From Alphaproteobacteria bacterium (lineage in GTDB: Bacteria; Pseudomonadota; Alphaproteobacteria; CAAHEQ01; UBA3637): DNA of 64,000 nucleotides. The stretch covers positions 8,779 through 72,778 of the forward strand of contig JAFYHG010000018.1 in NCBI GenBank assembly GCA_017539265.1, in the 5' to 3' direction. Below the pieces are notes generated by a model that saw nothing but the letters and a program-made list of their open reading frames with translations, did no database searches and was not told the origin of the DNA. The position numbers were made by a program, and so were the translations under genes. Positions 33,723-63,679 of the stretch are shown in pieces (position 1 is the first letter of the stretch; each line of letters starts with the position of its first letter).

Positions 33723-34553
33723 TTAATTCATCCATCCGTTAATAATAAAAGCCAACACAAAAGCCGTCGCACAAGAAGCAAACAAAAGCCCGTCCACCCG
33801 ATCAAAAAGACCGCCGTGTCCCGGTATTAAATCACTTGAATCTTTTAAATTCAGTTTCCGTTTAATTGCCGATTCAAAGAAGTCACCCACTTGTGCCACA
33901 ACCGCCAAAATACCGGCTGATACGACTAATTTCCACAAATAGTCATCTTCCGGTAATAATCGATACGCCTTTAAATACAAGGCAAATACATATGCCACCG
34001 CCATAGCAAACAAAATCGCTCCAAACAGTCCCGACCAAGTCTTTTTGGCACTAATTTTTGGGGCCAATTTCGGTCCGCCAACGGTTTTTCCCACTACAAA
34101 TCCGCCGATATCTGTTGCCCATACCACAAAAATCAACCACAAAACAATCTCCCGACTGACATTTTCATTGACATAGTAGATATAGCCCAATGACAACACC
34201 GGCAAACAAATATACGGCACACCCAAAGCAAATTTAAAATGTTTTGTAATGCCGAAAACAGAAGCCACACCCAATAAAATTAACCAAATACAAAACAGGG
34301 GATTGCCTTTGGCCATGAACGCGATTGAAATAGCGAAAAAAGTCATAACGACTTGTGCTGCGGCACCTTTCTTTTGAAACATTTTTCCCCATTCCCAAGA
34401 AAGCCCCTTTCCCAAAACAGCCAGTAAAAGAGGATACAAAGGAATATTATATTCCTCATAGACCATCTGCCCAAACCAAATCGGTGCCAGAACCATCGGC
34501 GCCAACGCAAGTGCCGACAAAACCCGCAAAGCCAAATTAGATTTCATAAGCAA
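33723..34553 (-). CDS. cdsA: Phosphatidate cytidylyltransferase
   Basis: It has the CdsA-family C-terminal signature (SAIKRKLNLKDSSDLIPGHGGLFDRVD). Confidence 0.8.
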   Translation of the reverse strand: MLMKSNLALRVLSALALAPMVLAPIWFGQMVYEEYNIPLYPLLLAVLGKGLSWEWGKMFQKKGAAAQVVMTFFAISIAFMAKGNPLFCIWLILLGVASVFGITKHFKFALGVPYICLPVLSLGYIYYVNENVSREIVLWLIFVVWATDIGGFVVGKTVGGPKLAPKISAKKTWSGLFGAILFAMAVAYVFALYLKAYRLLPEDDYLWKLVVSAGILAVVAQVGDFFESAIKRKLNLKDSSDLIPGHGGLFDRVDGLLFASCATAFVLAFIINGWMN

Positions 34554-34740
34554 TCATCCTTTCACATTACTTTCGTGATACTATTGCAGATTTTTCCCCC
34601 GCTGTCAAGTGTTATTCTATTTTATTCACTCGAAAAATTTTATATCCGAATATATCCACCAATACCCCACCCGCACATATGACTTTAGGGCAAACAAAAA
34701 AGGGAACCCATCGGGCTCCCTTTTTCTTTATCGGTTAGGA

Positions 34741-35661
34741 TTAACCGTTCATTTGTTTGGCAACTTCTGCGGCGAAATCTTCTTCTTTCTTTTCGATTCC
34801 TTCGCCCAAACCAAAGCGCACAAAAGCCGTCAATTTCACATCTGTTCCGACGGATTTTGCCAAATCGGCCACCACATCTTTAACCTTCTTGTCCGGATCC
34901 ATGATAAAGGCCTGTTCCAACAGGACCACTTCTTCATAGAATTTCCGCATCCGGCCTTCCACCATTTTTTCAATGATGGCCGCAGGTTTTCCGGAATTTT
35001 TAGCCTGTTCGCTATAGATTCCTTTTTCATGTTCAATCGTTGCCGCATCAACATCTGCCACCGCCAAAAAGCGCGGATTGGCCGCCGCAATATGCATGGC
35101 AATTTTCTTACCGGTTTCTTGTAACGCTGCTTGATCGCCCGTGCTTTCCAAAGCCACTAAAACACCAATCTTACCCATTCCCGATACCGTTGCCGTATGA
35201 ACATAGGGAACAACAACCCCTTGGTTCACCGACACATAACCGCTCCGACGCAGGTTCATGTTTTCACCGATTGTTGCAATCAAAGACGTTAAAGTATCCG
35301 AAACCGTTTTGCCGTTTAAATCGGCTGATTTAACGGCATCAACATCGCCTTTTTTCGCCAATGCAACCGTCATCACATCGCCCAAGAATTTTTGAAAGTC
35401 TGTATTTTTAGCCACAAAGTCTGTTTCGCTGTTGAGTTCCACCACAGCCCCTTCCAGACCTTTCACAATCACGCCGACAAGCCCTTGATTCGCTACCCGA
35501 CCGGCTTTCTTTTCGGCAACTGACATACCTTTTTTGCGCAAAAAGTCAATGGCGGCATCCAAATCACCATTTGTTTCCGACAGGGCTTTCTTGCACTCCA
35601 TCATACCGGCACCTGTTTTTTCGCGCAGTTCTTTAACTAAACCAGCTTTAATTTCTGACAT
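34741..35661 (-). CDS. tsf: Elongation factor Ts
   Basis: It has an N-terminal UBA-like region ([20 protein letters not shown]) and EF-Ts dimerisation domains. Confidence 0.9.
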
Positions 35662-36208
35662 GTTGTTTTTCTCCTTTTGTTTGTTGTTGATTAATTTTTG
35701 TTTTTTTTCTTGAAATCAGAAGGGCCTGAATTTGTGTCTTACGATCGGCCAACAGTATTTCTGCAACCCGATAAGCCTGATGAGCCTGTTGTAAACAAAT
35801 CGCCCGTTCCAATATCGGATGATAGTTATAGTATTTAAAGGCTATTTTTGTCATTTCCGTTCTGCCATAGTTCCGTTTAGGACTTAAGGCCTTTACACAA
35901 ACCTGCTGTTCGGCCGGTGATAATCCCGCCGCGAACTGGCAATTTGTCTGATAATTCAAATCCTCTATACTGTCAAACCGTTTCCATTGTACTTCCCGCA
36001 ACTGTGGAAGAGGTCCCCGCAGTGTCCGCAAAGTAAAATGTTCCATATCCGGCGGAATATGGGCGACAAAAGTCTGCCCCGAACTCAGGCCAAACACATA
36101 GAATGAGCCACTCAATCCCGTTGAAAACAATTTTCTTTCCGATGCAGACGCCGGTTGCACAAAAGAAAGTGATGTCTTTAAAATTTTTCGGATTTGTTGC
36201 CCTTCCAT
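35648..36208 (-). CDS. Hypothetical protein, translationally coupled to tsf
   Basis: Its stop overlaps the tsf start by 14 bp. No family was recognised. Confidence 0.4.
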
Positions 36209-36223
36209 TATGTCCCCCTACAA

Positions 36224-36763
36224 TCACTCATATTGTTTCAGGTCATATGTTTGCCGCCGCATTGCCATAAAATCTTGCAGATTTTGTTCTGCCTGCACTT
36301 TTGCCTGCGACATTTTCAAGAAATTAGCCCAATGATGCACCAATTCCATGGTTGTTTTCAAAAGCGGCACACAATGATAATCCGGGAAAGGCACCCACCG
36401 TTTTTCCTTAATGGGATATGGTGTCAAAACTTGCTGATAGGCTTCTCTCGCTTGCGCCGAGCAAGTCGCCTGAAAAGAAATTTCCGTCTTCAAAGCCGCC
36501 GGATATCCGCAAAATCCCCGTGCATTTCTGTTTTTCCAGTGTATTTTTGTAACATCCGGAACTTGATTGTATTCGGCAATCGGTATAAACAGGTATCCCG
36601 ATTTTGAAATAATCCCCCGGTAAGCCTGTTGCTTCTCCAAGTAAAAATCTACTGTCAGTTGAGTCGTATCCCATTGGCGATTTTCCATCGAAACCACCGG
36701 GCTTTCCAATATCTGTTTAATGTTCGAATCCAACAGATACTCATTTTTTGATTTTCTAGCCAT
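36224..36763 (-). CDS. Hypothetical protein, paralog of 36756-37295
   Basis: It shares motifs with its neighbour (VLTPYPIKEKRWVPFPDYHCVPLL / QTYDLKQYE). Confidence 0.45.
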   Translation of the reverse strand: MARKSKNEYLLDSNIKQILESPVVSMENRQWDTTQLTVDFYLEKQQAYRGIISKSGYLFIPIAEYNQVPDVTKIHWKNRNARGFCGYPAALKTEISFQATCSAQAREAYQQVLTPYPIKEKRWVPFPDYHCVPLLKTTMELVHHWANFLKMSQAKVQAEQNLQDFMAMRRQTYDLKQYE

Positions 36764-37295
36764 ATTGCCTCAGATCATAAGTTGCTTGTTTCAATGCTAA
36801 AATATCGGTCAAATTTTGATTCGCCTTCTTGGCAATCAGATCCATTTGAACTTTTTTCTCATAGGCATGTCGAACCTTAAATGCCGTCTGAAGCATCGGC
36901 ACATACCGATAAATCGGATACGGCCGCCAATCTTTTTCTTCAACTTCACGCGGTGTTAAGATTCTTTCATAAGCTTCTTTATCTACCTCTGATACCTTTT
37001 TGCTCAACACAACTTCGGTATCAAAACCGCTGCCGCGACCGCCGAAACCCATTCTATATGATTTCCACAGGATTTTCTGGAGTTCCGGCAATTGATTCTG
37101 CTCTGCATCAGCAGAAAACTGATATCCTTTTTCATTCCACAAAACACGGAATTTTTGTTTGCTTGACAGATAAAAATCCGCTTCCCACCATAAACCAATA
37201 TGGGGATCAACCGTTGACTGAAAATTTTCAATTTTGACAACTTCAGCGTTTAGTATTTTCTCGGCATTAGGCGTCATTTGAAGGTATCCTTTCAT
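36756..37295 (-). CDS. Hypothetical protein, paralog of 36224-36763
   Basis: It carries ILTPREVEEKDWRPYPIYRYVPML / ATYDLRQYG. Its stop overlaps the next gene's start by 8 bp. Confidence 0.45.
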   Translation of the reverse strand: MKGYLQMTPNAEKILNAEVVKIENFQSTVDPHIGLWWEADFYLSSKQKFRVLWNEKGYQFSADAEQNQLPELQKILWKSYRMGFGGRGSGFDTEVVLSKKVSEVDKEAYERILTPREVEEKDWRPYPIYRYVPMLQTAFKVRHAYEKKVQMDLIAKKANQNLTDILALKQATYDLRQYG

Positions 37296-37337
37296 TCAAA
37301 AGGGGAAGAAGGTGTGCCCCCTTCCCCTTTTTTTATT

Positions 37338-38105
37338 TTATTCTGCCTTTGCTTCCGCAGGGGCTTCTGCCGGCACTTCTGCTGCCGCACCGACATCAAC
37401 GCCGGCCGCTTTTAATTCGGCTTGAATACCGTCTAAAACAGCACCGGAAACCAAATCGCAATAGAGGTTAATTGCTCTCAAGGCATCATCATTCCCCGGT
37501 ACCGGATAGGCAATCCCGTCCGGATTCGCATTAGAATCGCAAATCGCAACCACGGGGATCCCTAATTTTTGGGCTTCCGCAATGGCCAATTGTTCCTTGG
37601 GCACATCGATTACAAAGATAATGTCCGGACGACCGTTCATATCTTGAATACCACCTAATGAGGCAAACAATTTTTCGCGTTCGCGTTCCATGTTCAATTT
37701 TTCTTTTTTGGTAAAACCGTTCAATTCGCCTTTGGCGATTTTAGAATCGATTTCTTTTAAGCGTTTAATACTGGAAGAAATGGTTTTCCAGTTCGTGAGC
37801 ATACCACCCAACCAACGGTGATTCACAAAGAATTGGCCGCAACGTTTTGCTGCTTGTTCAATCGGTTCTTGGGCTTGTTCTTTAGTTCCCACAAACAAAA
37901 CCTTGCCACCTTTGGCCGCGACATCGCGGATGGCTTCCAAGGCCCGATACAACATCGGAACTGATTGTGTTAAATCCATGATATGCACGCCTTCACGTGT
38001 TCCATAGATATATTGCCCCATTTTCGGGTTCCAGCGGCGCGCATTGTGCCCGAAATGGACACCCGCTTCAATAAGTTGACGCATAGATATAGTCGGAAGA
38101 GTCAT
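37338..38105 (-). CDS. rpsB: 30S ribosomal protein S2
   Basis: The full-length S2 starts [20 protein letters not shown]. Confidence 0.95.
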
Positions 38106-38714
38106 TTTAATATCCTTTCTTTTTCCGGTTAAACCTCAGTGGGGCAGAGCATCAATGAACCTTCATCGACACCGGAAGCGTTGTTTTCTCGGGAACTCCC
38201 CGAAATAAGCGCTTTCCCCACATGTGAATTTTGCCGTTTTTGTAAACGACGGTTGCTCTTATACACTATTTTTCCCCAAAAGTCAAGCATTATTTACACC
38301 TAACTCCAACCTTTTTCCATACGTAAAGTTTTCTGTTTTAGGCGCTAAAAAAGCCCCGTCAAAAGGGGCTTTATTACAAACTGGCGCGCCCGGCAGGAGC
38401 TTGGGGGGAAAGCAAAATAACCCACTGGATCAGTTGAAAAATTTTCAGGCAATATTTGAGGGTTTTCAGAAAGTGTCCAGGGGATGACAAGGGGTGATAG
38501 ATGAACAAATTTCTTGATGTATTTCAAGGGTAATTTCATATAAGGATAAAACTGTATTTTTGACACCTGTCTTATAAAAACAAGTTGGGCAAAAGGGCAT
38601 TTGTCAAAGATACATCAAAAGACGTCTTGTGGTAATGGCTTGCACCTCTTTATAAAACCTTTTCCAATACATCTTATTTTTTAAACGCTCTAAAAAACAT
38701 TATATTGTGATATG

Positions 38715-39563
38715 TTAGTCAGCATCATAGGTCCATTGACCATTTCTTAATTCAAATTTATCTAGATTAAATTTGACAGTACAATTTCCTTCAGGATCAC
38801 AACCGCCTGATATATTATTAAGATTCTTGATTTTTATATCTGTTATTATCGGAAAACGGTAGTAAAATACTTTTATTTTAAATGTAACCAGACCGGTCTC
38901 ATCTCCTAACATATTCTCAATGTAATCTAACGCCTTATCTTTTGGAAGATTTAGTTTGAAAATATCATATCTTTTTGCTTTATCCAATTTGATGTTAATG
39001 GCAACCGAGGAAGCATAATTTAGTATTGTATCTGCTAGATAATTCGCCCATAATCTATTATACTGATTTTCAAATAGCGTTTTAATCTCTTTTAAATCCT
39101 GATTCTCTTTTTTAAACTGGTACAAAGAAAGCAAAGTGTTCAGATTTTTTATCAATGGTTCTCCTTTACTAAAAATTTTAACTAATTCTTCCGTACTTTC
39201 AAAAGGATAATCTTTCTTTTCTAGAGAAAAACGGTGCAAGGCTGATTCAATGGCGGCATAATAGAGAACATGGTTCAATACCGTATTTACACAAGATTGA
39301 TACCTTTTCCCCTTTGTGAGGCATTGCTCTACTCTTGTTTTGATCTTTGCAGAGTCATAAGCTTTATCTATTGCCACAAGAGTTTCTTCTACCGTATCAG
39401 CATTCATTGTACCATCAATAATTTCTTGGGTGAGTTCCAATAATTTTGTTCTAAAATTAGAAATGGATTCTATTTGTTGACTTGTCATATCAAGGGCGTA
39501 ACTTTTACTTGTCATCAATACAAAAGTAATGACCAGAGCTAAGGATATTTTTATTTTAGACAT
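38715..39563 (-). CDS. Hypothetical secreted protein
   Basis: It has a signal peptide (MSKIKISLALVITFVLMTSKSYA). Confidence 0.5.
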   Translation of the reverse strand: MSKIKISLALVITFVLMTSKSYALDMTSQQIESISNFRTKLLELTQEIIDGTMNADTVEETLVAIDKAYDSAKIKTRVEQCLTKGKRYQSCVNTVLNHVLYYAAIESALHRFSLEKKDYPFESTEELVKIFSKGEPLIKNLNTLLSLYQFKKENQDLKEIKTLFENQYNRLWANYLADTILNYASSVAINIKLDKAKRYDIFKLNLPKDKALDYIENMLGDETGLVTFKIKVFYYRFPIITDIKIKNLNNISGGCDPEGNCTVKFNLDKFELRNGQWTYDAD

Positions 39564-39566
39564 ATT

Positions 39567-41249
39567 CTAATCCTTTCCGATACAATAAGATTCTGTACCA
39601 TATTCATGTCTTTCTCTTCTTATTTTACGATTTTGGCACATATTACATTGTTCTTCTGCTCCTGTTACATTAAGCCTTGCCAGTCCAATACCATAGTCTC
39701 CTTTGGAATCACAAGAATAACAGTGTGCAAAACCATAGCTTACTTCTAAAATGGGTTTTTCTTCCGGACACGGAATCATACAATATCTTCCGATTAATTT
39801 TCGATTTGGACAAAGCTTACAGTTATTCGTTACACCCTCAAGATCTACTAAATTACTTCCATCATTGCATGCAAAACATTCACCATTTTTATCTCTTAAA
39901 GGTTTATCAGGGGGGCATGACTTTAGGATGCTGTATTTTTCAACAATTTCTCTTTCCGTTTCACAAGCATTAGAGATATTTCCATTTACTTCAATTTTTA
40001 CAGGGGCTGAACAAGCATAGCAGTTACCATCGATATCTACTTGGGGTTTATCTGTTGGACATAATACACAACTGTTCCCCGTATCTAAAACAATTCTATT
40101 AGGACAGATCTGACACACCTCTGCAGCAGCAACACGAATACGAGCAATTTCATCACATGAATGACATTCTCCAACTTCATCCCTAAGGGGTTTATCCTTT
40201 GGACATGTTAAGATACAAATATCGCTATATTTTGTGTGGACAGAATACCTGTTGGGGCACACAGAACAATTTGGTGAGTCAATAGATCTGTTTGCTTCAT
40301 TTTCATCACAAGGATGGCAACGTCCTTCCTTATCGGCCAAAGGTTTGTCCTGTGGACACGGGAGAGAACAGAGATTTCCATACATAATACGGTTTGAACA
40401 TAATTGGCATGTTTGCTCATCGGTTTTTAATTTTTCATCGGTTTCACAATCATAGCATCCTGCGTTTACTCTCATTGGCTTATCAGATGGGCAAGTTTCC
40501 AAAATACATCCATTTTTGTAATCGTATATTCTCTCAGGATATAAAGCACATTGTTGTTTTTGAAAATCTATATTTTCTCTCGCTACATAGGCCCTCAAAG
40601 ATTCTTCTTCGTTTTTAGGTTCCATAAACGTAATAGGTAAAGGATCATCAGTGGCACGACAACCACCATTGCTATCGCGAATTGGGAAGTCTTTTGGACA
40701 TTCCCCCTTTAAAAAACAAATATTCCCGTTTAGTTCACGGTTTGCACATTGTAAACAATTACTTCGTTCATAACTTTGACGGAAGCCTAAATCCAATGCA
40801 GCAGGATCATCACATGAAAAACATTTAAATTCTCTTGTTCGTTCATCAACAATCACTTTAATTGGCTTTTCTTCAGGACAACCGAATGTGCAGGTACCTG
40901 TGGCTCCATCGTTATCTTCAAAAAATTGTGTTCCGGGAATTTGGGCACATTCCCAGTCCGTAAGACCATAAGCATCTTCTCTGGAACAAGCATTATAACC
41001 ACTACCTCTTAAAGGATTGTCTGGTGGACATTCTTTCAGAATACAGTGACCATACTCATCCAATTTTCTATTTGAGCATATGCTTGAGCACTCTTGATTG
41101 TAAACCCCGCGTAGTGTATCACAGGAAAAACATTCCCTATTGTACTCCGCTAATGGTTTATCTGGTGGACAAACAATAGGTTCTTTTTCAGCCATTGCAA
41201 AAGAAGGCATCATTATTGATATAAGTAAAAATAAGGTTGTTTTTTTCAT
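39567..41249 (-). CDS. Secreted cysteine-rich repeat protein (about 10 repeats with CP.DKPL.D..G.C..CD cores)
   Basis: It has a signal peptide. The translation shows about 10 repeats of 45-55 aa with conserved Cys spacing. Confidence 0.55.
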   Translation of the reverse strand: MKKTTLFLLISIMMPSFAMAEKEPIVCPPDKPLAEYNRECFSCDTLRGVYNQECSSICSNRKLDEYGHCILKECPPDNPLRGSGYNACSREDAYGLTDWECAQIPGTQFFEDNDGATGTCTFGCPEEKPIKVIVDERTREFKCFSCDDPAALDLGFRQSYERSNCLQCANRELNGNICFLKGECPKDFPIRDSNGGCRATDDPLPITFMEPKNEEESLRAYVARENIDFQKQQCALYPERIYDYKNGCILETCPSDKPMRVNAGCYDCETDEKLKTDEQTCQLCSNRIMYGNLCSLPCPQDKPLADKEGRCHPCDENEANRSIDSPNCSVCPNRYSVHTKYSDICILTCPKDKPLRDEVGECHSCDEIARIRVAAAEVCQICPNRIVLDTGNSCVLCPTDKPQVDIDGNCYACSAPVKIEVNGNISNACETEREIVEKYSILKSCPPDKPLRDKNGECFACNDGSNLVDLEGVTNNCKLCPNRKLIGRYCMIPCPEEKPILEVSYGFAHCYSCDSKGDYGIGLARLNVTGAEEQCNMCQNRKIRRERHEYGTESYCIGKD

Positions 41250-42022
41250 TGTATAAATCCCCTGATTAACTTATCATCCCATCCTTTGTCAGGACCTGTA
41301 AAAAATCCAAACCCAGAATTAAATTGAAAAAGCTTAACTTCATCCTCAGACATATCTCTTGATTTACCAGAAAGAGCATAAACTTTTCCAGAAACTTTTT
41401 CTCCATCTTGTATTATTTCAAAAGCCTTTCCACCAGTTCTATAAAAGAGTGTTGCTGTGGCTATTTTCTTTTCTTTGTCTACTGATCCAAGATATTTTAA
41501 ATTTCCATTTTTATAATATACCTTAAATTCTCCGGCCTCATCATTTTCTGGATATTCAGCGAATTTTTCACCGCTGGCATAACGCTGTTCTTCTACGTAC
41601 TCCTTTCCATTTTTATAAGTAATACTCCATCTTTGTTCACCATTAATATGGTAATGTATTTCTTTTCCTTCTTTTTCTCCGTTTAAGTATGTTCTTAACA
41701 TTCTTGGAGTCCCATCCGGACGATATTCTTCCAAGGTACCATTGTACTTTCCATCTTTCCAATGAACAATAAAGCGTTTCGTTCCATTGGGCCAATACCA
41801 AATTTCTGTTCCGTTTTTTAGACCATTTTCATAAGGTATTTCTTTTTGAATATTCCCATTTTTAAAGGGAACTTTTACCATCCCTGTAATACTTTGATTG
41901 TTCTGATCTACTACCATATTTAAAGCTGGATCTAAACGGATATCTTTTTCCTGATAAATCGTTTCGGCATTTACAGAAGCCGAAAAGATTAAACACAATG
42001 ATAAAATAAATTTATATTTCAT
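41246..42022 (-). CDS. Secreted MORN-variant (YwqK-like) repeat protein
   Basis: It has a signal peptide and repeated G..W..Y.NG.K..G motifs. Confidence 0.5.
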   Translation of the reverse strand: MKYKFILSLCLIFSASVNAETIYQEKDIRLDPALNMVVDQNNQSITGMVKVPFKNGNIQKEIPYENGLKNGTEIWYWPNGTKRFIVHWKDGKYNGTLEEYRPDGTPRMLRTYLNGEKEGKEIHYHINGEQRWSITYKNGKEYVEEQRYASGEKFAEYPENDEAGEFKVYYKNGNLKYLGSVDKEKKIATATLFYRTGGKAFEIIQDGEKVSGKVYALSGKSRDMSEDEVKLFQFNSGFGFFTGPDKGWDDKLIRGFIQ

Positions 42023-42023
42023 A

Positions 42024-42911
42024 TTATCGAGCCCCCAAACTGATACTAAGTGCTATATCCATCAAATAATCTGTTGCTTTTTGTTCGTCTAAAATGCTTT
42101 TTTCCCCGTTCTCAGAATAAAATTCTCCAGCAATGGCCTTATCTCCTTTGATAGTCAACCGCAACATGGGTTTATTATTTTCATAGTAGACCGTATAGAT
42201 ATAATTTGCTTGTTCTTTGAATTCTTCAGGTACTGGTTCTATATAAAGATATATTCTATTATTACTCGCATAGTAAGTTTTGGTATTTGTTGTCTGATCT
42301 TCTGAGAACGAAAGATTCCCTTTATAATCATACTGTTCCCTTATAGAATTATTTTCATAGCAAGATTCTACTTTTCGTGCTGGCAATTCAGTAATTGGTA
42401 ATCCGGTTACTTTTGAAATGCGTTTCTGTGTCGGGTCAATTTTCGACCTGTATCCGGAATAAGGCCTTCCATCTCTATAATACGTACTTTTAACGCATCT
42501 GTTCATTTTGTACTCTGTTTTTTGGGAAATTTCGCCGGGATGATATTTGTCATATTCAATTACCATACCATTTAGATATCCATCCTTAAAATCATACTCT
42601 TTTTCAAGAATATCTTCTCTATCATAACACTTCATCTTCCCGTCTTTTTTACCGTTTTTTACGGAAAGTTCCATCTTATGGCAAACTGACCACGAATTTG
42701 TCCCGGGTAAAGCAAACACCCTTGTCGAAACACTTTTTAACTGATCTGACTCATTATACAATATTGTTCCTGTGATCGGGTTATAGTTCTTATCATAGAT
42801 AATATCACTTTCCCGAACATCAAGAATATCTGTTAAAGAGTAAACTGCTTGCCCAAAAGATACGGAGGGGCATAAAGCAATGAATAATCCCAATATGGCT
42901 ATTTTTTTCAT
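42024..42911 (-). CDS. Secreted repeat protein (MORN-like)
   Basis: The signal peptide begins at the internal Met (MKKIAILGLFIALCPSVSFG). The sequence is KDG/Y/N-rich and repetitive. Confidence 0.45.
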   Translation of the reverse strand: MKKIAILGLFIALCPSVSFGQAVYSLTDILDVRESDIIYDKNYNPITGTILYNESDQLKSVSTRVFALPGTNSWSVCHKMELSVKNGKKDGKMKCYDREDILEKEYDFKDGYLNGMVIEYDKYHPGEISQKTEYKMNRCVKSTYYRDGRPYSGYRSKIDPTQKRISKVTGLPITELPARKVESCYENNSIREQYDYKGNLSFSEDQTTNTKTYYASNNRIYLYIEPVPEEFKEQANYIYTVYYENNKPMLRLTIKGDKAIAGEFYSENGEKSILDEQKATDYLMDIALSISLGAR

Positions 42912-43476
42912 AACATCCCCCATAATAAAACACTTTTTGTATTGTAAACAATTTTTTTCTAAATGCAAGTGTAAAAAAACGAACATTTTTATTGTCTGCT
43001 GAACTAAATATATTACGAACGTTTTTTAATATTGTTATATAAAATGATCAAAAAGATCTACAAACCGGATATCAAAAAATGCACTAAAAGTTCACCATAA
43101 AGTTCCATAAAAATTGTCCTAAAATCAATTTAAAAATGAGGATAAGAAAAGTGTTTGTTTGTGTCCAAGGATTGTGTCCACCCCTTGTTGCCAAGCAAAA
43201 TTCCCAATTTCAGGCATAAAAAAAGCCTTGATAAACAAGGCATTATTTTAAAAGTGGCGCGCCCGGCAGGAGCTTGGTGGAAAAGTGAAATAACCCACTG
43301 GATCAATTAAAAAATTTTTGGGCGATTTTTGAGGGTTTTCAGAAAGTGCCCAGGGGATGACAAGGGGTGATGAATGGACAAACTTCTTGATGTATTTCAG
43401 GGGTAATTTTACATAAGGATAAAAGTATATTTTGGATATCTGTCATAGGAGCACAGGTTGGGCAAAAAGGCATTTA

Positions 43477-48161: not shown

Positions 48162-49130
48162 TTATGGTGTTTTTTGTAATTTCTTAAATTGGTAAAATAC
48201 AGATGCCGGCGAAACACCGAAATAGTCGCCAATTTGTCTAAAACTCATTCCAGCTGTTTTCATTCGTACCAATTGTTTGCTATCCACTTTAAAGTCTTCC
48301 CAGCCTTTATTTTTAACTAAATCAAATTTTTTTATAACCCTGTAGATACTCGCTGGATGGGCATTTACCTTTTTTGCAATTTCTTTTCCCGAAACACCAG
48401 AAAAATACAATTTTTTTATAAGTTCTTCCTGCTTTCCCAACCGACTATTCAATTTAATTTGATCAGGTGTCCGGGTTAATCCCATTTTTTTAATTTCTTG
48501 TTCAAGAAGTTTATGAGAGCATCCTAATTTTTCTGCTATAAAGGAAATGGATCTTCCTTCAGCAAACATCTCTTTTATCTTATCCTTTTTAAGGTCTAAT
48601 TTCTTCAGTTTAGGTGCTTCTAAATTATGTAAAAGAATGAAATTATACAATGTTGAATAGCAAACATTATATTTTTGTGCAATGGCTTTTCTAGAGACAC
48701 CTTTTAATAATAGGTCTTGTATATCATCTTTATAGTGGTCTATTCTGGTCCAGTTATGGCGAGGTTCTGGTTTTAACCCCAATAATCTTTGTTCTTCTAA
48801 TGTTTTTTTGCCTTTTTTATAGACCTGTATACGATCAAGTGATGCGACATAAATACCGCTTTCTTTTTCAAATTTTATGAGTGTTCTGCGGCATATTTTC
48901 AATTTTTTACAGATATCTTCACGCGTTAGCCCTAATTTATAAAAATGTTTTATTTTTTCGGGATTAAGTTTTATTTCCCGAGTATGTGGTTCTCTTTTCC
49001 ACCCTAAATCTTTTAGATAATTACGAAGGGTAGAAAGACTTATATTCATACGATCCGCTATCCCGCCCAAGGAAAGGTCAGATTTGTAGAGTTCTTTTAA
49101 TTTGTCTATATCTAGTTCAATTTTGTTCAT
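48162..49130 (-). CDS. Protein made of six tandem Hin/resolvase-type HTH (HTH_7-like) domains
   Basis: The translation shows six units of about 50 aa, each with a G(V/M/R)S...IA...(V/C)S..T(L/V)Y..(L/I)KK(L/F) pattern. Confidence 0.55.
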   Translation of the reverse strand: MNKIELDIDKLKELYKSDLSLGGIADRMNISLSTLRNYLKDLGWKREPHTREIKLNPEKIKHFYKLGLTREDICKKLKICRRTLIKFEKESGIYVASLDRIQVYKKGKKTLEEQRLLGLKPEPRHNWTRIDHYKDDIQDLLLKGVSRKAIAQKYNVCYSTLYNFILLHNLEAPKLKKLDLKKDKIKEMFAEGRSISFIAEKLGCSHKLLEQEIKKMGLTRTPDQIKLNSRLGKQEELIKKLYFSGVSGKEIAKKVNAHPASIYRVIKKFDLVKNKGWEDFKVDSKQLVRMKTAGMSFRQIGDYFGVSPASVFYQFKKLQKTP

Positions 49131-49234: not shown

Positions 49235-52200
49235 TTAGAATCCAAAAGTCACACCGACTTTGTAGGACACGCTGTCGTTGCCACCATAGGCAGCACCGGC
49301 GTTCAACAATGTCCGGTCGTTGAGATAATGGAATGCACCAACAGCCAAGGCTTGGTTGTTCTTGTATCCGCCCAAAGCCGCACTGACTTGCGTTTTGTGG
49401 ACATGATCCAGAGGAACAAGACCTGCCAAAGCGTTGTTAGCAGCTAACCCGTTTTCCATCTTGGTTTCTAACTTGTTGATACGGCGATCAACGCGGGCGA
49501 ATTCAGCACCCAAGTTATCATTCAAGTTGGTCAAGAGGTCAGAAATGCTTGACGGATCACCAACGGCTTGTGCACCAACAGCACCACCATTAGCTTGTTC
49601 TTTTCCTTTAAAGAACTTTAAGTTCTCTAAAGAAGACAAATCGCCAACAGTTTCATCAACGGCTTCAAAAGCAGATTCTGTAGCTGATTCTAACAATGCA
49701 ATTTGGTTATCTGTGTAAGTATTAGCATTGGCCTCAGCTGTATCAGCAGCACCATATGCATCATATGTATTAGCTGCAATAGCACCACTGATAGATGTAA
49801 TCTTACCATCTGTTTCAACGATGTTCAAAGACAAACCATCAGCACCTGCTGCTTGTGATACATTAGCATCTAAAGCATTAACTTTACCATCTGCGTAAGT
49901 CTTTGCATCAGCCAAAGCATTAGCAGCAGCACCATATGCATCATATGTATTAGCTGCAATAGCACCGCTGATAGCTGTAATCTTACCATCTGTTTGTGTA
50001 ATACTTAATGATAAGCCATCAGCACCGGCTGCTTGTGATACATTAGCATCCAAAGCATTAACTTTACCATCTGCGTAATTTTTGGCATTGGTTTCTGCTG
50101 TATTAGCATAACCTTTTGCTTGAGTATTCACATAAGTAACTGCTTCTGCAAGAGAACCAACCTGTTCGGTTGATACTTCTAAAGCGGTACGCATTGTATC
50201 CAGATTACCGACACGGCTATCAAGACCTTTGATTTGTCCATCTAAAACAATGTCAGCACCTGTCAATGTTGTTGCAGCTGTCAGGTAGTTTGTATCGGCG
50301 TATTCGTTGTTAACTGCATTCGAATTGGCCGAAGTAATACCCAATGTGTTATCAACCCATTGTTGTTTCTCGTTGAAGATAGCTTCTGCTTCTGTCCGTG
50401 TATAGACATCTGCGAGATTTGCTTTGTTAGCATCCAAAGCATCCAAAGCACCACGAACTGTTGTCGTTGAGCCTTCGCCTTGCTTTAACACAGAACCGTC
50501 TACAGCTTCTTCATCCGCATAGTTAACATCACCGATGGTGTCATTTGTGCCTTTGATTTGCGCATCCAAAACAATGTCAGCACCTGTCAAGGTTGTTGCA
50601 TCCGTCAGGTAGTTTGTGTCGGCGTATTCGTTGTTAACTGCATTCGCATTAGCCGAAGTAATACCCAATGTGTCATCAACCCATTGTTGTTTTTGTGCAA
50701 AGATAGCTTCTGCTTCGCTTCTGACACCGGCAACAGCCGTTGTAACAGCGGTATTAATCTTGCCATCAACAACTTTGCCCAATGAATCATCATAGGCCGC
50801 TACACTAGCCTCATGAGTAGCTGTATCAGTTGTGAAGTTAGTATTAGCTGTTTGCAATGATCCTTCCCAATTATTCAGGTTAGTTACTGTTGCTTGGTCA
50901 GTCGCCATGGTAGTAGCAATCTTATCCTTATTTGCAACGCTGTCATCATAGTAACCTTTTAATTCGGATTGTCTATTGGCCAGAGCCGTTACATCAGATT
51001 CGTAAGCATTAACTAGGTCTGCTTTGATACCTGCTGTAGTTGCATCATCTGCTGATACTGCTGTTCCATTTTTCTTTAAGACATAGCCATCTTCTGACGC
51101 TTCGATGGTATAATGGTCACCTGCAGTATTCGTCAATTCATAATTGGCAATATCAACACTTCCAGTTCCTGCGCTAGATGCAGTGATATCAAGTTTACCA
51201 CCTAAATCACTCGTCTGAACTGTATCTGTTAATTCTGCAACCGCTGTGCTACCTGCGACAGAAGTAGAATTACCATCTTTATCATATGTGACATATGTAT
51301 AATCATCGGCAGTCAGAGTACCACTATCATAGGACAGGTCGGCCACAGCAGAAATACCATCTACAGTAGCAGCTGCAGAAGTTGCAGTGTAATCTGCCGA
51401 TGTATAGGAAGCACCAGCGACTAAATCTGTGGGATTACCTTCTGGATCTGTAAAGCCATAATCCGCGGCATCCGGTGCATCACCAGGAGCGTTTGCAGAA
51501 ATGCTTGACACTTTATCAGACAATGTCTTCAAAGCAGTGTCCAAAGCGGTATCAGCACCCGTCAAGGTTGTTGCAGCTGTCAGGTAATTTGTTCCGGTGT
51601 ATTCGTCGTTAACTGCATTCGCATTAGCCGAAGTAATACCCAATGTGTTATCAACCCAGGTTTGCTTTTCGTTGAAGATAGCTTCTGCATTATCCCATAA
51701 TGTTCCCAAAGCGGTATCTGTATAGTTTTTCGCATAAGTCTTTGCATTTGCTTCAGCTGTATTCGCTTTCGTTGTTGCATCAGTAGCAGCGGCTGTAATC
51801 GCTTCGGATTTAGCAGTAGCAGCAGCACCATAAGCATCATATGTATTTGCAGCAATGCTACCAGAAATACCAGTAATCACACCATTTTCTTGAGTGATGC
51901 TCAAAGCCAATTGACCATTACCTGCGGCTGCAGCTTGAGTTTCTGTTGCATTCAAAGCATCAATTGCATCACCAACTGTTTTGCTCACAGAACCATCGCC
52001 TGTACCATTCAAGGTAGCAATAGCGCTCTCGTTTGTTGTGATTTTACCTACAAGAGTAGAAGTAATACCAGAGTTGACGGCAGCTAATTGTTCTGTTCCC
52101 AATTTTGCTTGGTATGTATTCGCCAAATCTAAAGCATCAATTGCATCACCAACTGTTTTGCTCACAGAACCATCGCCTGTACCATTCAAGGTAGCAATAG

Positions 52201-52726
52201 CATCTGCATTGGCTTTAACCTGTGTATCCAATAACTTATCTGCGCCAGCCATTGTTGTTGCGCCTGTCAGATAATTTGTACCGGTATACGCATTTGTTAC
52301 CCCAGTTGTTCCGGTGGATAAATCAACGCCCAATGTTTTCTGGGAAATGACACCACCTGTTAATTCTACAAAATCACCAACAGCAGTATTGACAACGGCA
52401 TAATCACCAGCATCTGAACTACCCGCTAGCAATTGTGCTAAAGCATCACGAGTGTATTTGGGGTGAGCCGCTGCAAAATCTGCATCAATGGTGTAATCTG
52501 TTCCACCAAGATTTGTAGTGTAGGTGTCTGTCCCCGTTGTGATGGCTGTATGAAAATTAGTTAAGTTTGTTGCAACTGAAGCAGTAGGGTCATAAGCCTC
52601 ATCTGCTGCCTTTGCACCTGTGGCAACGATTAAGCCCACTGCAAAGGCATTAAGCAGAAAACATTTCTTCAAAACACTACGGTATCTCGCAGAAAGTTCT
52701 CTGATTGTTGTTTTTGTATATTTCAT
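49235..52726 (-). CDS. Trimeric autotransporter adhesin (YadA-like), 1163 aa, island-encoded
   Basis: It has a signal peptide, a Thr/Ala/Gly-rich passenger domain with long internal repeats, and a C-terminal anchor (ALGGYKNNQALAVGAFHYLNDRTLLNAGAAYGG...VGVTFGF) homologous to the C-terminus of the 1-2417 gene. Confidence 0.8.
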   Translation of the reverse strand: MKYTKTTIRELSARYRSVLKKCFLLNAFAVGLIVATGAKAADEAYDPTASVATNLTNFHTAITTGTDTYTTNLGGTDYTIDADFAAAHPKYTRDALAQLLAGSSDAGDYAVVNTAVGDFVELTGGVISQKTLGVDLSTGTTGVTNAYTGTNYLTGATTMAGADKLLDTQVKANADAIATLNGTGDGSVSKTVGDAIDALDLANTYQAKLGTEQLAAVNSGITSTLVGKITTNESAIATLNGTGDGSVSKTVGDAIDALNATETQAAAAGNGQLALSITQENGVITGISGSIAANTYDAYGAAATAKSEAITAAATDATTKANTAEANAKTYAKNYTDTALGTLWDNAEAIFNEKQTWVDNTLGITSANANAVNDEYTGTNYLTAATTLTGADTALDTALKTLSDKVSSISANAPGDAPDAADYGFTDPEGNPTDLVAGASYTSADYTATSAAATVDGISAVADLSYDSGTLTADDYTYVTYDKDGNSTSVAGSTAVAELTDTVQTSDLGGKLDITASSAGTGSVDIANYELTNTAGDHYTIEASEDGYVLKKNGTAVSADDATTAGIKADLVNAYESDVTALANRQSELKGYYDDSVANKDKIATTMATDQATVTNLNNWEGSLQTANTNFTTDTATHEASVAAYDDSLGKVVDGKINTAVTTAVAGVRSEAEAIFAQKQQWVDDTLGITSANANAVNNEYADTNYLTDATTLTGADIVLDAQIKGTNDTIGDVNYADEEAVDGSVLKQGEGSTTTVRGALDALDANKANLADVYTRTEAEAIFNEKQQWVDNTLGITSANSNAVNNEYADTNYLTAATTLTGADIVLDGQIKGLDSRVGNLDTMRTALEVSTEQVGSLAEAVTYVNTQAKGYANTAETNAKNYADGKVNALDANVSQAAGADGLSLSITQTDGKITAISGAIAANTYDAYGAAANALADAKTYADGKVNALDANVSQAAGADGLSLNIVETDGKITSISGAIAANTYDAYGAADTAEANANTYTDNQIALLESATESAFEAVDETVGDLSSLENLKFFKGKEQANGGAVGAQAVGDPSSISDLLTNLNDNLGAEFARVDRRINKLETKMENGLAANNALAGLVPLDHVHKTQVSAALGGYKNNQALAVGAFHYLNDRTLLNAGAAYGGNDSVSYKVGVTFGF

Positions 52727-53005: not shown

Positions 53006-53617
53006 ATGGCAACTATCGCATATATCAGGGTTAGCAGCGATAAACAAACCTGTTCTAACCAACACTTTACGATTAAAGAATACACAAAATCTCACAATAT
53101 CCACATTGATAAATGGGTTGAAGAGACTATTTCCAGCAAGAAACCTTTGGAAAAGCGGGAATTAGGCGTATTATTAAATAAAATGGATAAAGGCAGTTTA
53201 TTAATTGTAACGGAAATCAGCCGTCTTGCCCGTAATCTATACGAATTGGCGGGCATATTGCAAAATGCTATTAAGAACGACATTACTGTTATTAGTATCA
53301 AGGAAAACTATCAGTTCAAAAATGATATCCAGTCCAAAATTATGGCATATACTTTTGGGCTTGCCGCAGAAATTGAGCGTGATTTGATCTCAACCCGCAC
53401 TAAAATGTCATTGGATAAATTAAAAAAGCAAAATGTTAAATTAGGCAGACCATTCGGGGCGGAGACAAAATGTTTAAAACTATCCAAAAACCGCAAGAAA
53501 ATAAGGGAATTATTAGGAAAAGGTGTCAGTCAGGCCAAAATATCCAAAATCCTTGGCGTCCACCCGACAACCATGTGCCGGTTCTTGAAACGAGTGGATG
53601 TGTCAACCTGTTCCTGA
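53006..53617 (+). CDS. Serine recombinase (resolvase/invertase family, Hin/Gin-like)
   Basis: It has an N-terminal catalytic motif (IAYIRVSSDKQ), a small resolvase-type catalytic domain and a C-terminal HTH (GVSQAKISKILGVHPTTMCRFLKR). Confidence 0.8.
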   Translation: MATIAYIRVSSDKQTCSNQHFTIKEYTKSHNIHIDKWVEETISSKKPLEKRELGVLLNKMDKGSLLIVTEISRLARNLYELAGILQNAIKNDITVISIKENYQFKNDIQSKIMAYTFGLAAEIERDLISTRTKMSLDKLKKQNVKLGRPFGAETKCLKLSKNRKKIRELLGKGVSQAKISKILGVHPTTMCRFLKRVDVSTCS

Positions 53618-57006: not shown

Positions 57007-58779
57007 ATGTCATACCACTATCCTGGACTGATTATATTATACGGGCAATTTTATATTAGGGTTAGAATACCCGCCTGTTTAAGAATGATCGCCAGATGCA
57101 AAGAGATAAGATATTCATTACAAACAAAAATCTATCAGGAAGCAATTGAAAAGTACCACGTGGAATTTGCTCATTTACAAGCATTTTTAACAATTTTTAA
57201 GGATATAATTATGAAAGTAAATGAGAATAAACAATTAACTTTAACTGAAACTGATGTGGACAAATTATTGCTCCACAGGTTAGAACAAATCCAAACCTTT
57301 TTGGAAAATAATGTAGATGAAATCAAGTCCCGACATAAGTCCGAGGCAGATATTATTTTGCTCTCAAGGGATAAAAAAGAAGCGGATATCCGCAAATTAA
57401 TGCAGGATATGATTTTGGGTTATTTGAAAGGACTGGTGGATAAAAATAAGGCAAATATCACTTTGCGGATGATTTACACTCAACTCAAAAATAAAGAGAT
57501 TGAGTTGGGGTTAGTGCAACAGGGGGAAAAATATGATTGGTTAAAAGCATTTTCCACCCACATTAACCATTTAGACCATTATGCCCAAAAATCTGTTAAG
57601 GCAATCCAAGAGGAAAAGCATTATGCCCCAACCAACCCAAAGGTTATAACCCTTTTGCGCACTTATGATTCCATGAAAACGGATGAGCGAATTCACTGTT
57701 CTATGGCAGCAACCCATTGGAAAAAGTTTTTCAAACGCTATCTGACGATGAAAAAGAATATTAAAGGGACATCTAATAAAAGGTTGTGTAAATTGGAGAA
57801 ATGTATTTGGTTAGCATTTGCACTTATGAAACGGGAGTATGTAGAAGATGTAACCAAACAGGATTGTCGCCAACTTTGCGAACTGATACATCGAGTTCCG
57901 AAACGGTGGCAAGAAAAAATTAGGGGAGATGATATTTTCCAAATTTTGACAGATAACCCTGAAAAGGCACTATCTAAAACAACCATTCAAGGATACTTAA
58001 CAGTATTTAAGGAGTACATGCGTTATGCTGAAAGAGAGGAGATTATTTCCAATAATTTGAATAGCGCAGTAGATGTACCTATCAATGTAAAACCATTTCA
58101 GCGAGAACCCTTTACAGCGAAAGATTTACACAAGATGTTTAATTCAGAAACATATATAGATCCCCGTATCAGAAAGGATTTACCCAAATTCTGGATACCA
58201 ATTATAGCCCTTTACCATGGTTGTCGTTTGAATGAAATCTGTCAATTGGATGTCAATGATATTGTGCAAGAAAAGGGAATACCTTGTATCAGCATTAATG
58301 CAAATGCCCCAGATAAATCCGTTAAAAATAAAGGATCTGAACGAATAATACCACTACATCCAAAACTAATTGAAATGGGATTTTTATATTATGTTGAATA
58401 TCAAAAACGAGGGCACAAACGAAAATTGTTTGACCTAAAACAGATTAAAAACGGGATGTATGGTAGTCCGGTCCAACATTGGTTTGCACGATATTTAGAT
58501 AGTATTGGGATAACGGAAACAACCAAAGTTTTTCATTCGTTCCGGCATACTTTTGAGACAATGGCAACAGAAAAGAGAATTCCCCCACAATATCAAAATG
58601 CAATTTGTGGGTGGACAGAACAAGGCATTGGACAAAGACTTTATGCCCACAAGAAGGACATGAACATTATGTTAGAAGAAATCAGCAAAATTAACTATCC
58701 AATCAATCGTGAACTGTCAGAACTAAAGAAGTCTTTCATGGATTCATTTGTTGTCAGGTCTTTAAGGGCAAATGGATAA
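57007..58779 (+). CDS. Tyrosine-type phage/island integrase
   Basis: The C-terminal catalytic motifs are present (..HSFRHTFETMA.. box II, GWT, RLYAHK). It lies adjacent to the tRNA gene. The true start may be an internal Met. Confidence 0.8.
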   Translation: MSYHYPGLIILYGQFYIRVRIPACLRMIARCKEIRYSLQTKIYQEAIEKYHVEFAHLQAFLTIFKDIIMKVNENKQLTLTETDVDKLLLHRLEQIQTFLENNVDEIKSRHKSEADIILLSRDKKEADIRKLMQDMILGYLKGLVDKNKANITLRMIYTQLKNKEIELGLVQQGEKYDWLKAFSTHINHLDHYAQKSVKAIQEEKHYAPTNPKVITLLRTYDSMKTDERIHCSMAATHWKKFFKRYLTMKKNIKGTSNKRLCKLEKCIWLAFALMKREYVEDVTKQDCRQLCELIHRVPKRWQEKIRGDDIFQILTDNPEKALSKTTIQGYLTVFKEYMRYAEREEIISNNLNSAVDVPINVKPFQREPFTAKDLHKMFNSETYIDPRIRKDLPKFWIPIIALYHGCRLNEICQLDVNDIVQEKGIPCISINANAPDKSVKNKGSERIIPLHPKLIEMGFLYYVEYQKRGHKRKLFDLKQIKNGMYGSPVQHWFARYLDSIGITETTKVFHSFRHTFETMATEKRIPPQYQNAICGWTEQGIGQRLYAHKKDMNIMLEEISKINYPINRELSELKKSFMDSFVVRSLRANG

Positions 58780-59089: not shown

Positions 59090-59166
59090 TGGCGCGCCCG
59101 GCAGGATTCGAACTTACAACCTTCTGATCCGTAGTCAGATGCTCTATCCAATTGAGCTACGGGCGC
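59090..59166 (-). tRNA. tRNA-Arg (anticodon ACG)
   Basis: A 77-nt cloverleaf was folded by hand: acceptor GCGCCCG/CGGGCGC, D-arm GCTC..GAGC, anticodon stem TCTGA/TCAGA with loop CTACGGA, T-loop TTCGAAT, and a CCA encoded. The T-stem has one A-C mismatch. Confidence 0.8.
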
Positions 59167-63284: not shown

Positions 63285-63644
63285 ATCGGTCAGGCAGTCT
63301 ATAAGCCGGGTTTTGTCGTGGACAATCATTCGTCTGGGACGCGCATTACTGTTCGCCTCTAGCGACTTACCTCTTGATACTCAGCCAGAAACGCCTGTTT
63401 AGCGGGAATAAATCCCGAGTATCTTTTCTTAGTCTTGCTTCCGATAGGGTTTGTCCTGCCACTCCTGTTACCAAAAGTGCGGTGGGCTTTTACCCCGCCG
63501 TTTCACCCGTTCCGCGGTATACCGCGGTAGTTTGTTTTCTGTGACACTTTCCGTCGAGTCACCCCGCCCGGACGTTATCCGGTATCGTGTTTCTGTGAAG
63601 CCCGGACTTTCCTCAAAAACCGGTTGGTTTTCGCGATCATCCGA
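63285..63644 (-). ncRNA. rnpB: RNase P RNA (bacterial type A)
   Basis: The minus-strand sequence contains GGAAAGTCCGGGCTTCACAGAAA and a 3' end TGTCCACGACAAAACCCGGCTTATAGACTGCCTGACCGATT matching E. coli M1 RNA. The 5' and 3' ends pair to form P1. Confidence 0.85.
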
Positions 63645-63650
63645 CTACCT

Positions 63651-63679
63651 GACCGCCGGATATATTACCAAAAAATCCC
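63651..63679 (-). promoter_or_regulatory. rnpB promoter TTGACA-17-TAATAT
   Basis: On the minus strand a consensus -35 and a near-consensus -10 sit immediately upstream of the rnpB 5' end. Confidence 0.6.

Follow-up and report, generated by a model that had tools for sequence, protein, structure and literature searches.

An additional protein family encoded between rpsB and tsf carries the translation signals of tsf in a clade of uncultured Alphaproteobacteria

The pairing of rpsB with tsf is among the most conserved gene adjacencies in bacteria, and a locus in which other genes stand between the two raises the question of whether it has been locally disturbed or whether the additional genes belong there. 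We examined such a locus in a 64,000-nucleotide (nt) stretch from an Alphaproteobacteria bacterium (assembly GCA_017539265.1, contig JAFYHG010000018.1, positions 8,779 to 72,778 of the forward strand), referred to here as the window, in which three open reading frames (ORFs) lie between rpsB and tsf and the genes pyrH, frr and uppS do not follow tsf. A preliminary description of the sequence had read this as a rearrangement with three inserted genes. We found instead that the three ORFs belong to one protein family, called X here, that X is a constant feature of the rpsB-tsf operon throughout a clade of relatives, and that the coding sequence of X carries the translation signals of tsf.

The order and coordinates of the genes, all on the minus strand, were taken from the ORF map and their identities from Pfam:

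37338 to 38105, minus strand: rpsB, ribosomal protein S2, 255 amino acids (aa) (PF00318, E 1.3e-93)
36756 to 37277, minus strand: ORF A, family X group I, 173 aa; longest ORF from 37295 (37295-36756); AlphaFold2 (AF2) model and ratio of nonsynonymous to synonymous substitution rates (dN/dS)
36224 to 36763, minus strand: ORF B, family X group I, 179 aa; GAGG ribosome-binding site upstream
35648 to 36208, minus strand: ORF C, family X group II (the widespread type), 186 aa; AF2 model
34741 to 35661, minus strand: tsf, elongation factor Ts (EF-Ts), 306 aa (PF00889, E 1.8e-71)
33723 to 34553, minus strand: cdsA (Pfam CTP_transf_1); likely start ATG at 34547, giving 274 aa

Independent gene callers reported the same three ORFs, and when applied to a metagenome contig from ENA (ERZ27256873 k141_1918238, 126 kb), which encodes an identical EF-Ts and has the same gene order as the window, they gave genes of 173, 179 and 186 aa; the window accordingly derives from an uncultured organism. 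ORF A most likely starts at 37277 (MTPNA...), 18 nt inside the longest ORF, because its orthologues begin there and the upstream ATG runs into an in-frame stop in one of the related loci described below (L005); an AAAGGA ribosome-binding site is found 8 nt upstream of this ATG. Good Shine-Dalgarno sequences precede each of ORF A, ORF B, ORF C and tsf. The ~1.6 kb between rpsB and tsf is thus filled by three ORFs rather than being a non-coding spacer, with the start of ORF B overlapping the stop of ORF A by 8 nt (ATGGCTAG) and the last 14 nt of ORF C overlapping the start of tsf. To this extent the preliminary description stood: its three unknown genes do separate rpsB from tsf at the coordinates given, the first two are overlapping tandem paralogues as it proposed, the third runs 14 nt into tsf on the ORF map, and a hairpin followed by a U-tract is present in the 187-nt gap across which it had cdsA follow tsf past a terminator.

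The reading of these genes as inserted, and peculiar to this genome, did not survive a comparison of synteny. We compared the window with 19 related loci (L001 to L019) on independent contigs, a few of them short with one flank visible and both flanks present in 16 of the 19. Wherever flanks were present, X was found between rpsB and tsf and on the same strand, in 19/19 loci. These loci are not simply near copies of the window, as S2 identity to the window ranges from 76 to 100% and EF-Ts identity from 67 to 98%, while X itself falls to ~20% identity where S2 is at ~78% and EF-Ts at ~68%. Because X holds the same slot in every one of them, the rpsB-X-tsf layout is ancestral to a clade of uncultured Alphaproteobacteria, most of which were sampled from the ruminant gut, and is not a local rearrangement. 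The preliminary description had named, as grounds for giving up its reading, that relatives would share the arrangement as ancestral and that the genes would have a known function; the relatives do share it, but no known function exists for X.

The number of X copies differs among the loci. One copy is present in L001/L002, L006-L008, L011-L016 and L018, two in L010 and at least two in L019, and three in the window, L003, L005, L009 and L017. A rough neighbour-joining tree divides the family into two groups, group I holding ORF A and ORF B of the window together with the single copy of L001, and group II, the more widespread type, holding ORF C and most other members. It is worth keeping in mind that the genome scan used a sub-alignment of group II, the whole-family alignment being too divergent, which biases the recovered loci towards that group. 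Duplications fall in several lineages on the tree, and from this pattern we conclude that the X copies arose by repeated tandem duplication in place. One protein of 360 aa (P0058) consists of two X domains in tandem and ends in the ERRQNG tail discussed below, so that at least one lineage has merged a tandem pair into a single gene.

The signals that surround and join these genes in the window are, all on the minus strand:

38258 to 38286, minus strand: promoter-like TTGACT-17 nt-TATAAG upstream of the leader, read by eye and therefore putative
38108 to 38226, minus strand: rpsB 5′ leader RNA (Rfam RF01815), S2 autoregulatory motif, 46.9 bits against a gathering score of 40
37298 to 37331, minus strand: 15-bp hairpin directly 3′ of the rpsB stop with only a short U run (free energy, dG, -25.5; z -4.85)
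34696 to 34726, minus strand: intrinsic terminator after tsf, a 14-bp GC-rich hairpin followed by UUUUUUG (dG -20.8; z -3.8)
34580 to 34608, minus strand: promoter-like TTGACA-17-AATAGT before cdsA, 10/12 matches, TG before the second hexamer

The putative promoter upstream of rpsB was missed by the promoter scanner, whose rule demands a T at position 6. The leader behind it corresponds to the rpsB motif described as an S2-responsive element by Meyer et al. (2009; PMC2704228). It was also found upstream of rpsB in L003 and L005, and it fell below threshold in the Rfam scan of more distant loci. Since the Rfam leader precedes the operon, control of the operon by S2 is plausible.

The spacing of the genes is tight at both ends of X. 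Five lineages have spacers of 1, 1, 7, 16 and 19 nt between rpsB and the first X copy. In the window, in L003 and L005, and in L001, which is more distant, the spacer measures 59-63 nt and contains a hairpin. The stem of this hairpin has compensatory changes in L005, and the hairpin of L001 has no U-tract; it may attenuate transcription or stabilise the mRNA, and does not make a convincing full terminator. At the other end, most lineages have an overlap of 8 nt (ATGGnTAA) or 14 nt between the last X copy and the tsf ATG; in L014 the end of X falls directly ahead of the tsf start or slightly past it, and in L001 it falls 15 nt upstream of tsf. The Shine-Dalgarno sequence of tsf (AAAGGAG) lies inside the 3′ end of X, or, in L001, just after the X stop. 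Comparing the X-tsf junctions of L003-L014 showed that in many members that differ widely elsewhere conservation is highest in the C-terminal tail "...IQQKLxERRQNG", the same tail being "GEKQHVRN" in the window (35648-35690). In ORF C this tail is predicted to be disordered. Its conservation in spite of disorder is explained by its codons, which carry the Shine-Dalgarno and start region of tsf in another frame; what keeps "ERRQNG" constant is a constraint on the nucleotides of the tsf translation start and not a protein motif. Gene spacing and overlaps thus favour co-transcription with rpsB and tsf, which the preliminary description had thought likely, together with translational coupling. The most economical reading, we infer, is a single rpsB-X-tsf transcript in which the last X copy is translationally coupled to tsf.

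What kind of protein X might be was approached through its sequence relationships. ORF A and ORF B share 36% identity (E 6e-38), and ORF A and ORF C 22% (E 5e-5), making ORF C a remote paralogue with the same predicted fold. On these comparisons the three ORFs are tandem paralogues of one undescribed family, and the homology searches widen the earlier proposal of a paralogue family from the first two ORFs to all three. In scans of ORFs A, B and C against Pfam, NCBIfam and PHROG nothing exceeded a curated threshold or reached E < 0.02, the best PHROG matches being to proteins of unknown function at chance level (E 0.027-0.14). Relaxing the Pfam threshold to E <= 1 for 39 X members gave scattered single matches, with no family matched by more than one member, and sequence-profile searches of the PDB gave chance matches to unrelated proteins only (E 0.65 and 9.8). 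No homologue of X was found by tblastn in phage or plasmid collections, and a mobile origin was rejected on that ground. No further copies were found in the 64-kb window, and the literature search turned up no relevant account of a gene in the rpsB-tsf interval.

Relatives were few even in very large collections. With ORF A as query, a word-indexed search across 5.8 billion proteins returned only 7 relatives, and a HMMER profile search of 1.84 billion cluster representatives returned 53 proteins at E <= 1e-3, 32 of them at E <= 1e-10, nearly all of the 53 being 150-220 aa long. The only names among the 43 proteins of a second profile search were "hypothetical protein [Alphaproteobacteria bacterium]", from metagenome-assembled genomes (MAGs). 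By their record titles, the matches in genome collections came from MAGs of yak and goat gastrointestinal samples, other animal metagenomes and unclassified Alphaproteobacteria. X proteins are mildly basic (isoelectric point 8.6-9.9), and no signal peptide was apparent in their N-termini by eye.

Coding status was examined with dN/dS between the window and its closer relatives. Against L005 the values were 0.09 for ORF A, 0.08 for ORF B, 0.21 for ORF C, 0.03 for rpsB and 0.04 for tsf, and against L003 they were 0.25, 0.19 and 0.07 for ORFs A, B and C. Overall the X copies ranged from 0.07 to 0.25 and rpsB and tsf from 0.00 to 0.14, values indicating that X is under purifying selection and evolves several times faster than S2 or EF-Ts. 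The comparison with L003, an otherwise near-identical contig, also brought out a mosaic. The 3′ two-thirds of ORF A (~37090-36790, ~300 nt) is 66-77% identical in nucleotides to L003, while its flanks are at least 94% identical and mostly 97% or more; synonymous divergence (dS) is 0.61 for ORF A and 0.03 for rpsB. ORF A of the window is closer to that of L005, an otherwise more distant locus, than to that of L003. Smaller divergent patches relative to L003 were seen in tsf (35300-35399, 85%) and cdsA (34000-34099, 87%). The patch in ORF A suggests allele exchange between strains, or it may come from chimeric metagenome assembly.

Structure prediction with AF2 gave models of ORF A from an alignment of 9 sequences (predicted local distance difference test, pLDDT, 85.2; predicted template modelling score, pTM, 0.74) and of ORF C from 45 sequences (pLDDT 90.6, pTM 0.79). 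Both models have the same order of elements, namely a short N-terminal helix, an antiparallel strand meander, a helix of ~10 residues, a beta hairpin and a C-terminal helix of 33-46 residues, which in ORF C is followed by the disordered tail. From these models X would be a soluble alpha+beta protein of ~20 kDa in which a curved antiparallel sheet packs on helices, a predicted fold that is confident and novel-looking. Foldseek gave no match in the PDB at E <= 0.001. We call the predicted fold helix-grip-like and do not file X as a member of the SRPBCC superfamily. The columns conserved in at least 90% of members are I9, L10, G34, L41, Q45, F47, N65, P68, L70 and W75, of which only Q45 and N65 are polar. 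Since almost no polar residues are conserved, the alignment points to a binding or structural protein and not to an enzyme.

Taken together, we propose that X is an ancestral, co-expressed and non-enzymatic accessory protein of the S2/EF-Ts operon. Transcription of X would start at the rpsB promoter, with its S2-binding leader RNA, the last copy would be translationally coupled to EF-Ts, and the protein would be produced in step with S2 and EF-Ts. It would most likely be a lineage-specific accessory of the translation apparatus, and could assist or modulate either S2 and the 30S platform or the EF-Ts/EF-Tu cycle. Co-expression is favoured because genes so closely packed could hardly be expressed separately. 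We hold the operon-level description of X with high confidence, and regard the part in which X acts as a translation partner as tentative, somewhat short of an even chance; a blend of these two judgements comes to about even odds. Several points weigh against this proposal. The proposed tie of X to ribosomes or elongation factors comes only from operon membership, and functionally unrelated genes can share an operon. Fast evolution, repeated duplication and an apparent recombination patch seem less typical of core translation components, the nearest neighbours of the predicted fold are ligand- and lipid-binding proteins and not translation factors, and in the sub-lineage of the window the hairpin after rpsB could cut read-through, so that expression of the genes may be unequal. 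A stronger form of the proposal, in which X is a new lineage-specific translation component (30S-associated near S2, or a modulator of EF-Ts/EF-Tu) recruited into the rpsB-tsf operon in this gut alphaproteobacterial clade and diversified through tandem duplication into specialised paralogues, is possible, though we lean against it.

A role outside translation could account for some of the same observations. If X were a helix-grip (SRPBCC/START-like) carrier of small molecules or lipids, using a strong constitutive operon near the lipid-carrier genes uppS and cdsA, then one or the other of these genes being found a few genes downstream in most loci would make sense, and the absence of conserved catalytic residues would fit a binding protein. 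We consider this unlikely, as 0/39 X members match an SRPBCC-type Pfam family even at E <= 1, the predicted topology includes one helix and one hairpin too many as well as a C-terminal helix (33-46 residues) that far exceeds that of Bet v 1 in length, and X is tightly coupled to rpsB and tsf rather than to uppS or cdsA, a coupling that persists in L001 where no lipid gene follows tsf. The divergence of X could also be that of a conflict gene, for example one that guards S2, EF-Ts or EF-Tu against phages or toxins, or of a host-interaction factor, in either case kept always expressed in an essential operon and diversified in an arms race. Such a gene might well show ~20% identity where S2 is ~78% and EF-Ts ~68% identical, repeated tandem duplication, and a ~300-nt divergent patch such as that in ORF A relative to L003. 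However, every copy has a dN/dS well below 1, metagenome assembly could have produced the mosaic patch as an artefact, and X, in contrast to defence islands, has a strictly vertical inheritance of position that does not vary within the clade. No signal peptide was seen by eye and no phage or plasmid homology was found, though the PADLOC defence library was not searched, and overall this explanation seems quite improbable.

Two further explanations were considered. A recent insertion or rearrangement peculiar to this genome, as the preliminary description implied, might be suspected from the departure from the canonical rpsB-tsf-pyrH-frr-uppS-cdsA order and from a real mobile island of 20.75 kb just upstream of rpsB, yet we find it very hard to sustain when X occupies the same slot in 19/19 loci across deep divergence and the upstream island ends before the rpsB promoter. 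There is no shift in composition, the GC (guanine plus cytosine) fraction being 0.40-0.45 in X and 0.43-0.47 in the flanks, and no integrase or mobile-element homology was found within the operon, flanking repeats not having been searched for. Chance open frames in an expanded rpsB-tsf spacer would agree with a database annotation of only "hypothetical protein"; they are barely credible given good ribosome-binding sites and 53 profile matches of fitting length, and purifying selection together with confident AlphaFold models led us to reject them as a candidate.

We then return to the second half of the puzzle, the genes that are missing. Immediately 3′ of tsf the window has an intact block cdsA-rseP-bamA-skp-lpxD-fabZ-lpxA-lpxI-lpxB by Pfam assignment, in which cdsA abuts rseP. 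None of pyrH, frr, uppS and dxr was found between tsf and bamA, and no motif match to any of them was found anywhere in the 64-kb window. A tblastn search of the whole window likewise gave no match for pyrH, frr or uppS, using Frr and UppS of a relative and a hand-typed E. coli PyrH sequence as queries. This agrees with the absence of the last three genes downstream of tsf noted in the preliminary description and extends it to the full window. Remnants in the tsf-cdsA gap were considered as well and rejected, the gap having only 187 nt, which hold the terminator and the promoter-like site, and no tblastn match.

The relatives indicate that these absences differ in age. L006-L008, L010-L016 and L018 have the order rpsB-X-tsf-frr-uppS, pyrH being absent from the tsf-frr interval. 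In L001 the genes that follow tsf are unrelated and convergent, and in the window, L003 and L020/L021 tsf is followed by a terminator and promoter-like site and then by cdsA. Because the distant relatives keep tsf-frr-uppS without pyrH, the loss of pyrH from the site is old in the clade, and the link to frr-uppS was broken later, in the sub-lineage of the window only. Both losses are independent of the acquisition of X. The preliminary description was right that additional genes and missing genes occur together here, but the synteny of the relatives makes separate events of what it had joined into one rearrangement. As for pyrH and dxr, they may be encoded elsewhere in these genomes or be missing from the clade altogether.

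Some other features of the window deserve mention. The ~20.75 kb at 38300-59052 is present in the window and absent from the near-identical contig L003, in which tRNA-Arg(ACG) lies ~200 nt upstream of the rpsB leader; in the window this stretch lies between tRNA-Arg(ACG) (59090-59166, minus strand) and the rpsB promoter. It encodes a tyrosine integrase adjoining the tRNA (57007-58779), a serine resolvase (53006-53617), a protein with multiple helix-turn-helix motifs (48162-49130) and an adhesin of 1163 aa with a YadA anchor (49235-52726). Because a 56-bp repeat of the tRNA 3′ end is found at 43216-43271, the stretch looks like one or two tRNA-targeted genomic islands. Its rpsB-proximal part (38500-42986) has a GC content of 29-38% compared with ~44%, and encodes a cysteine-rich repeat protein of 560 aa whose N-terminus resembles a signal peptide (39567-41249) and a protein with MORN repeats (41246-42022), along with two ORFs that match nothing in Pfam. 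The RNA of RNase P (bacterial class A, 282.6 bits) is located at 63286-63652 on the minus strand.

The locus matters because in an entire clade a further gene family has become established within a core operon and tightly coupled to it, with the ribosome-binding site of EF-Ts embedded in the coding sequence of X, a rare case of innovation inside a core translation operon. X, for which there is no Pfam or NCBIfam model, is a candidate for a new ribosome- or elongation-factor-associated protein in uncultured gut Alphaproteobacteria. If X turns out to be unrelated to translation, it would show how genes can be locked into an essential operon through overlapping translation signals. We regard the interest of the locus as moderate, and it would be considerably greater should X prove to be translation-associated; the practical value is modest at present, the organisms being uncultured.

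It is useful to set X beside known systems. In the chloroplast PETs polyprotein, PSRP-7, which has S1 domains, is fused upstream of EF-Ts and cleaved from it afterwards (PMC8343077). X is likewise encoded immediately upstream of EF-Ts, and PETs provide a precedent for a ribosome-associated protein that is co-produced with EF-Ts; X, however, has no S1 domain by Pfam, is a separate overlapping cistron in a different frame and is not homologous to PSRP-7, so we draw an analogy only. Compared with SRPBCC, START and Bet v 1 proteins, X has no profile match (Polyketide_cyc, START, Bet_v_1, AHSA1 and others), an extra helix and hairpin, and a longer last helix, that of Bet v 1 having roughly 25 residues. 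The SRPBCC superfamily includes RatA/Coq10-type proteins, one of which reportedly binds ribosomes, and we note this as a lead only. The usual alphaproteobacterial order is tsf-pyrH-frr-uppS-cdsA-dxr-rseP-bamA-skp-lpxD-fabZ-lpxA-lpxI-lpxB, of which the window retains the part from cdsA to lpxB, directly after tsf and with only dxr missing from it; pyrH, frr and uppS are absent as well, while distant relatives keep tsf-frr-uppS without pyrH. A further parallel is the canonical rpsB-tsf operon, as in E. coli and with the RF01815 leader, in which rpsB comes first and tsf last on one strand. The window has the same plan, with an rpsB leader, a hairpin after rpsB and a terminator after tsf, and differs from it in that one to three copies of X stand between the two genes, with the ribosome-binding site of tsf inside a coding sequence.

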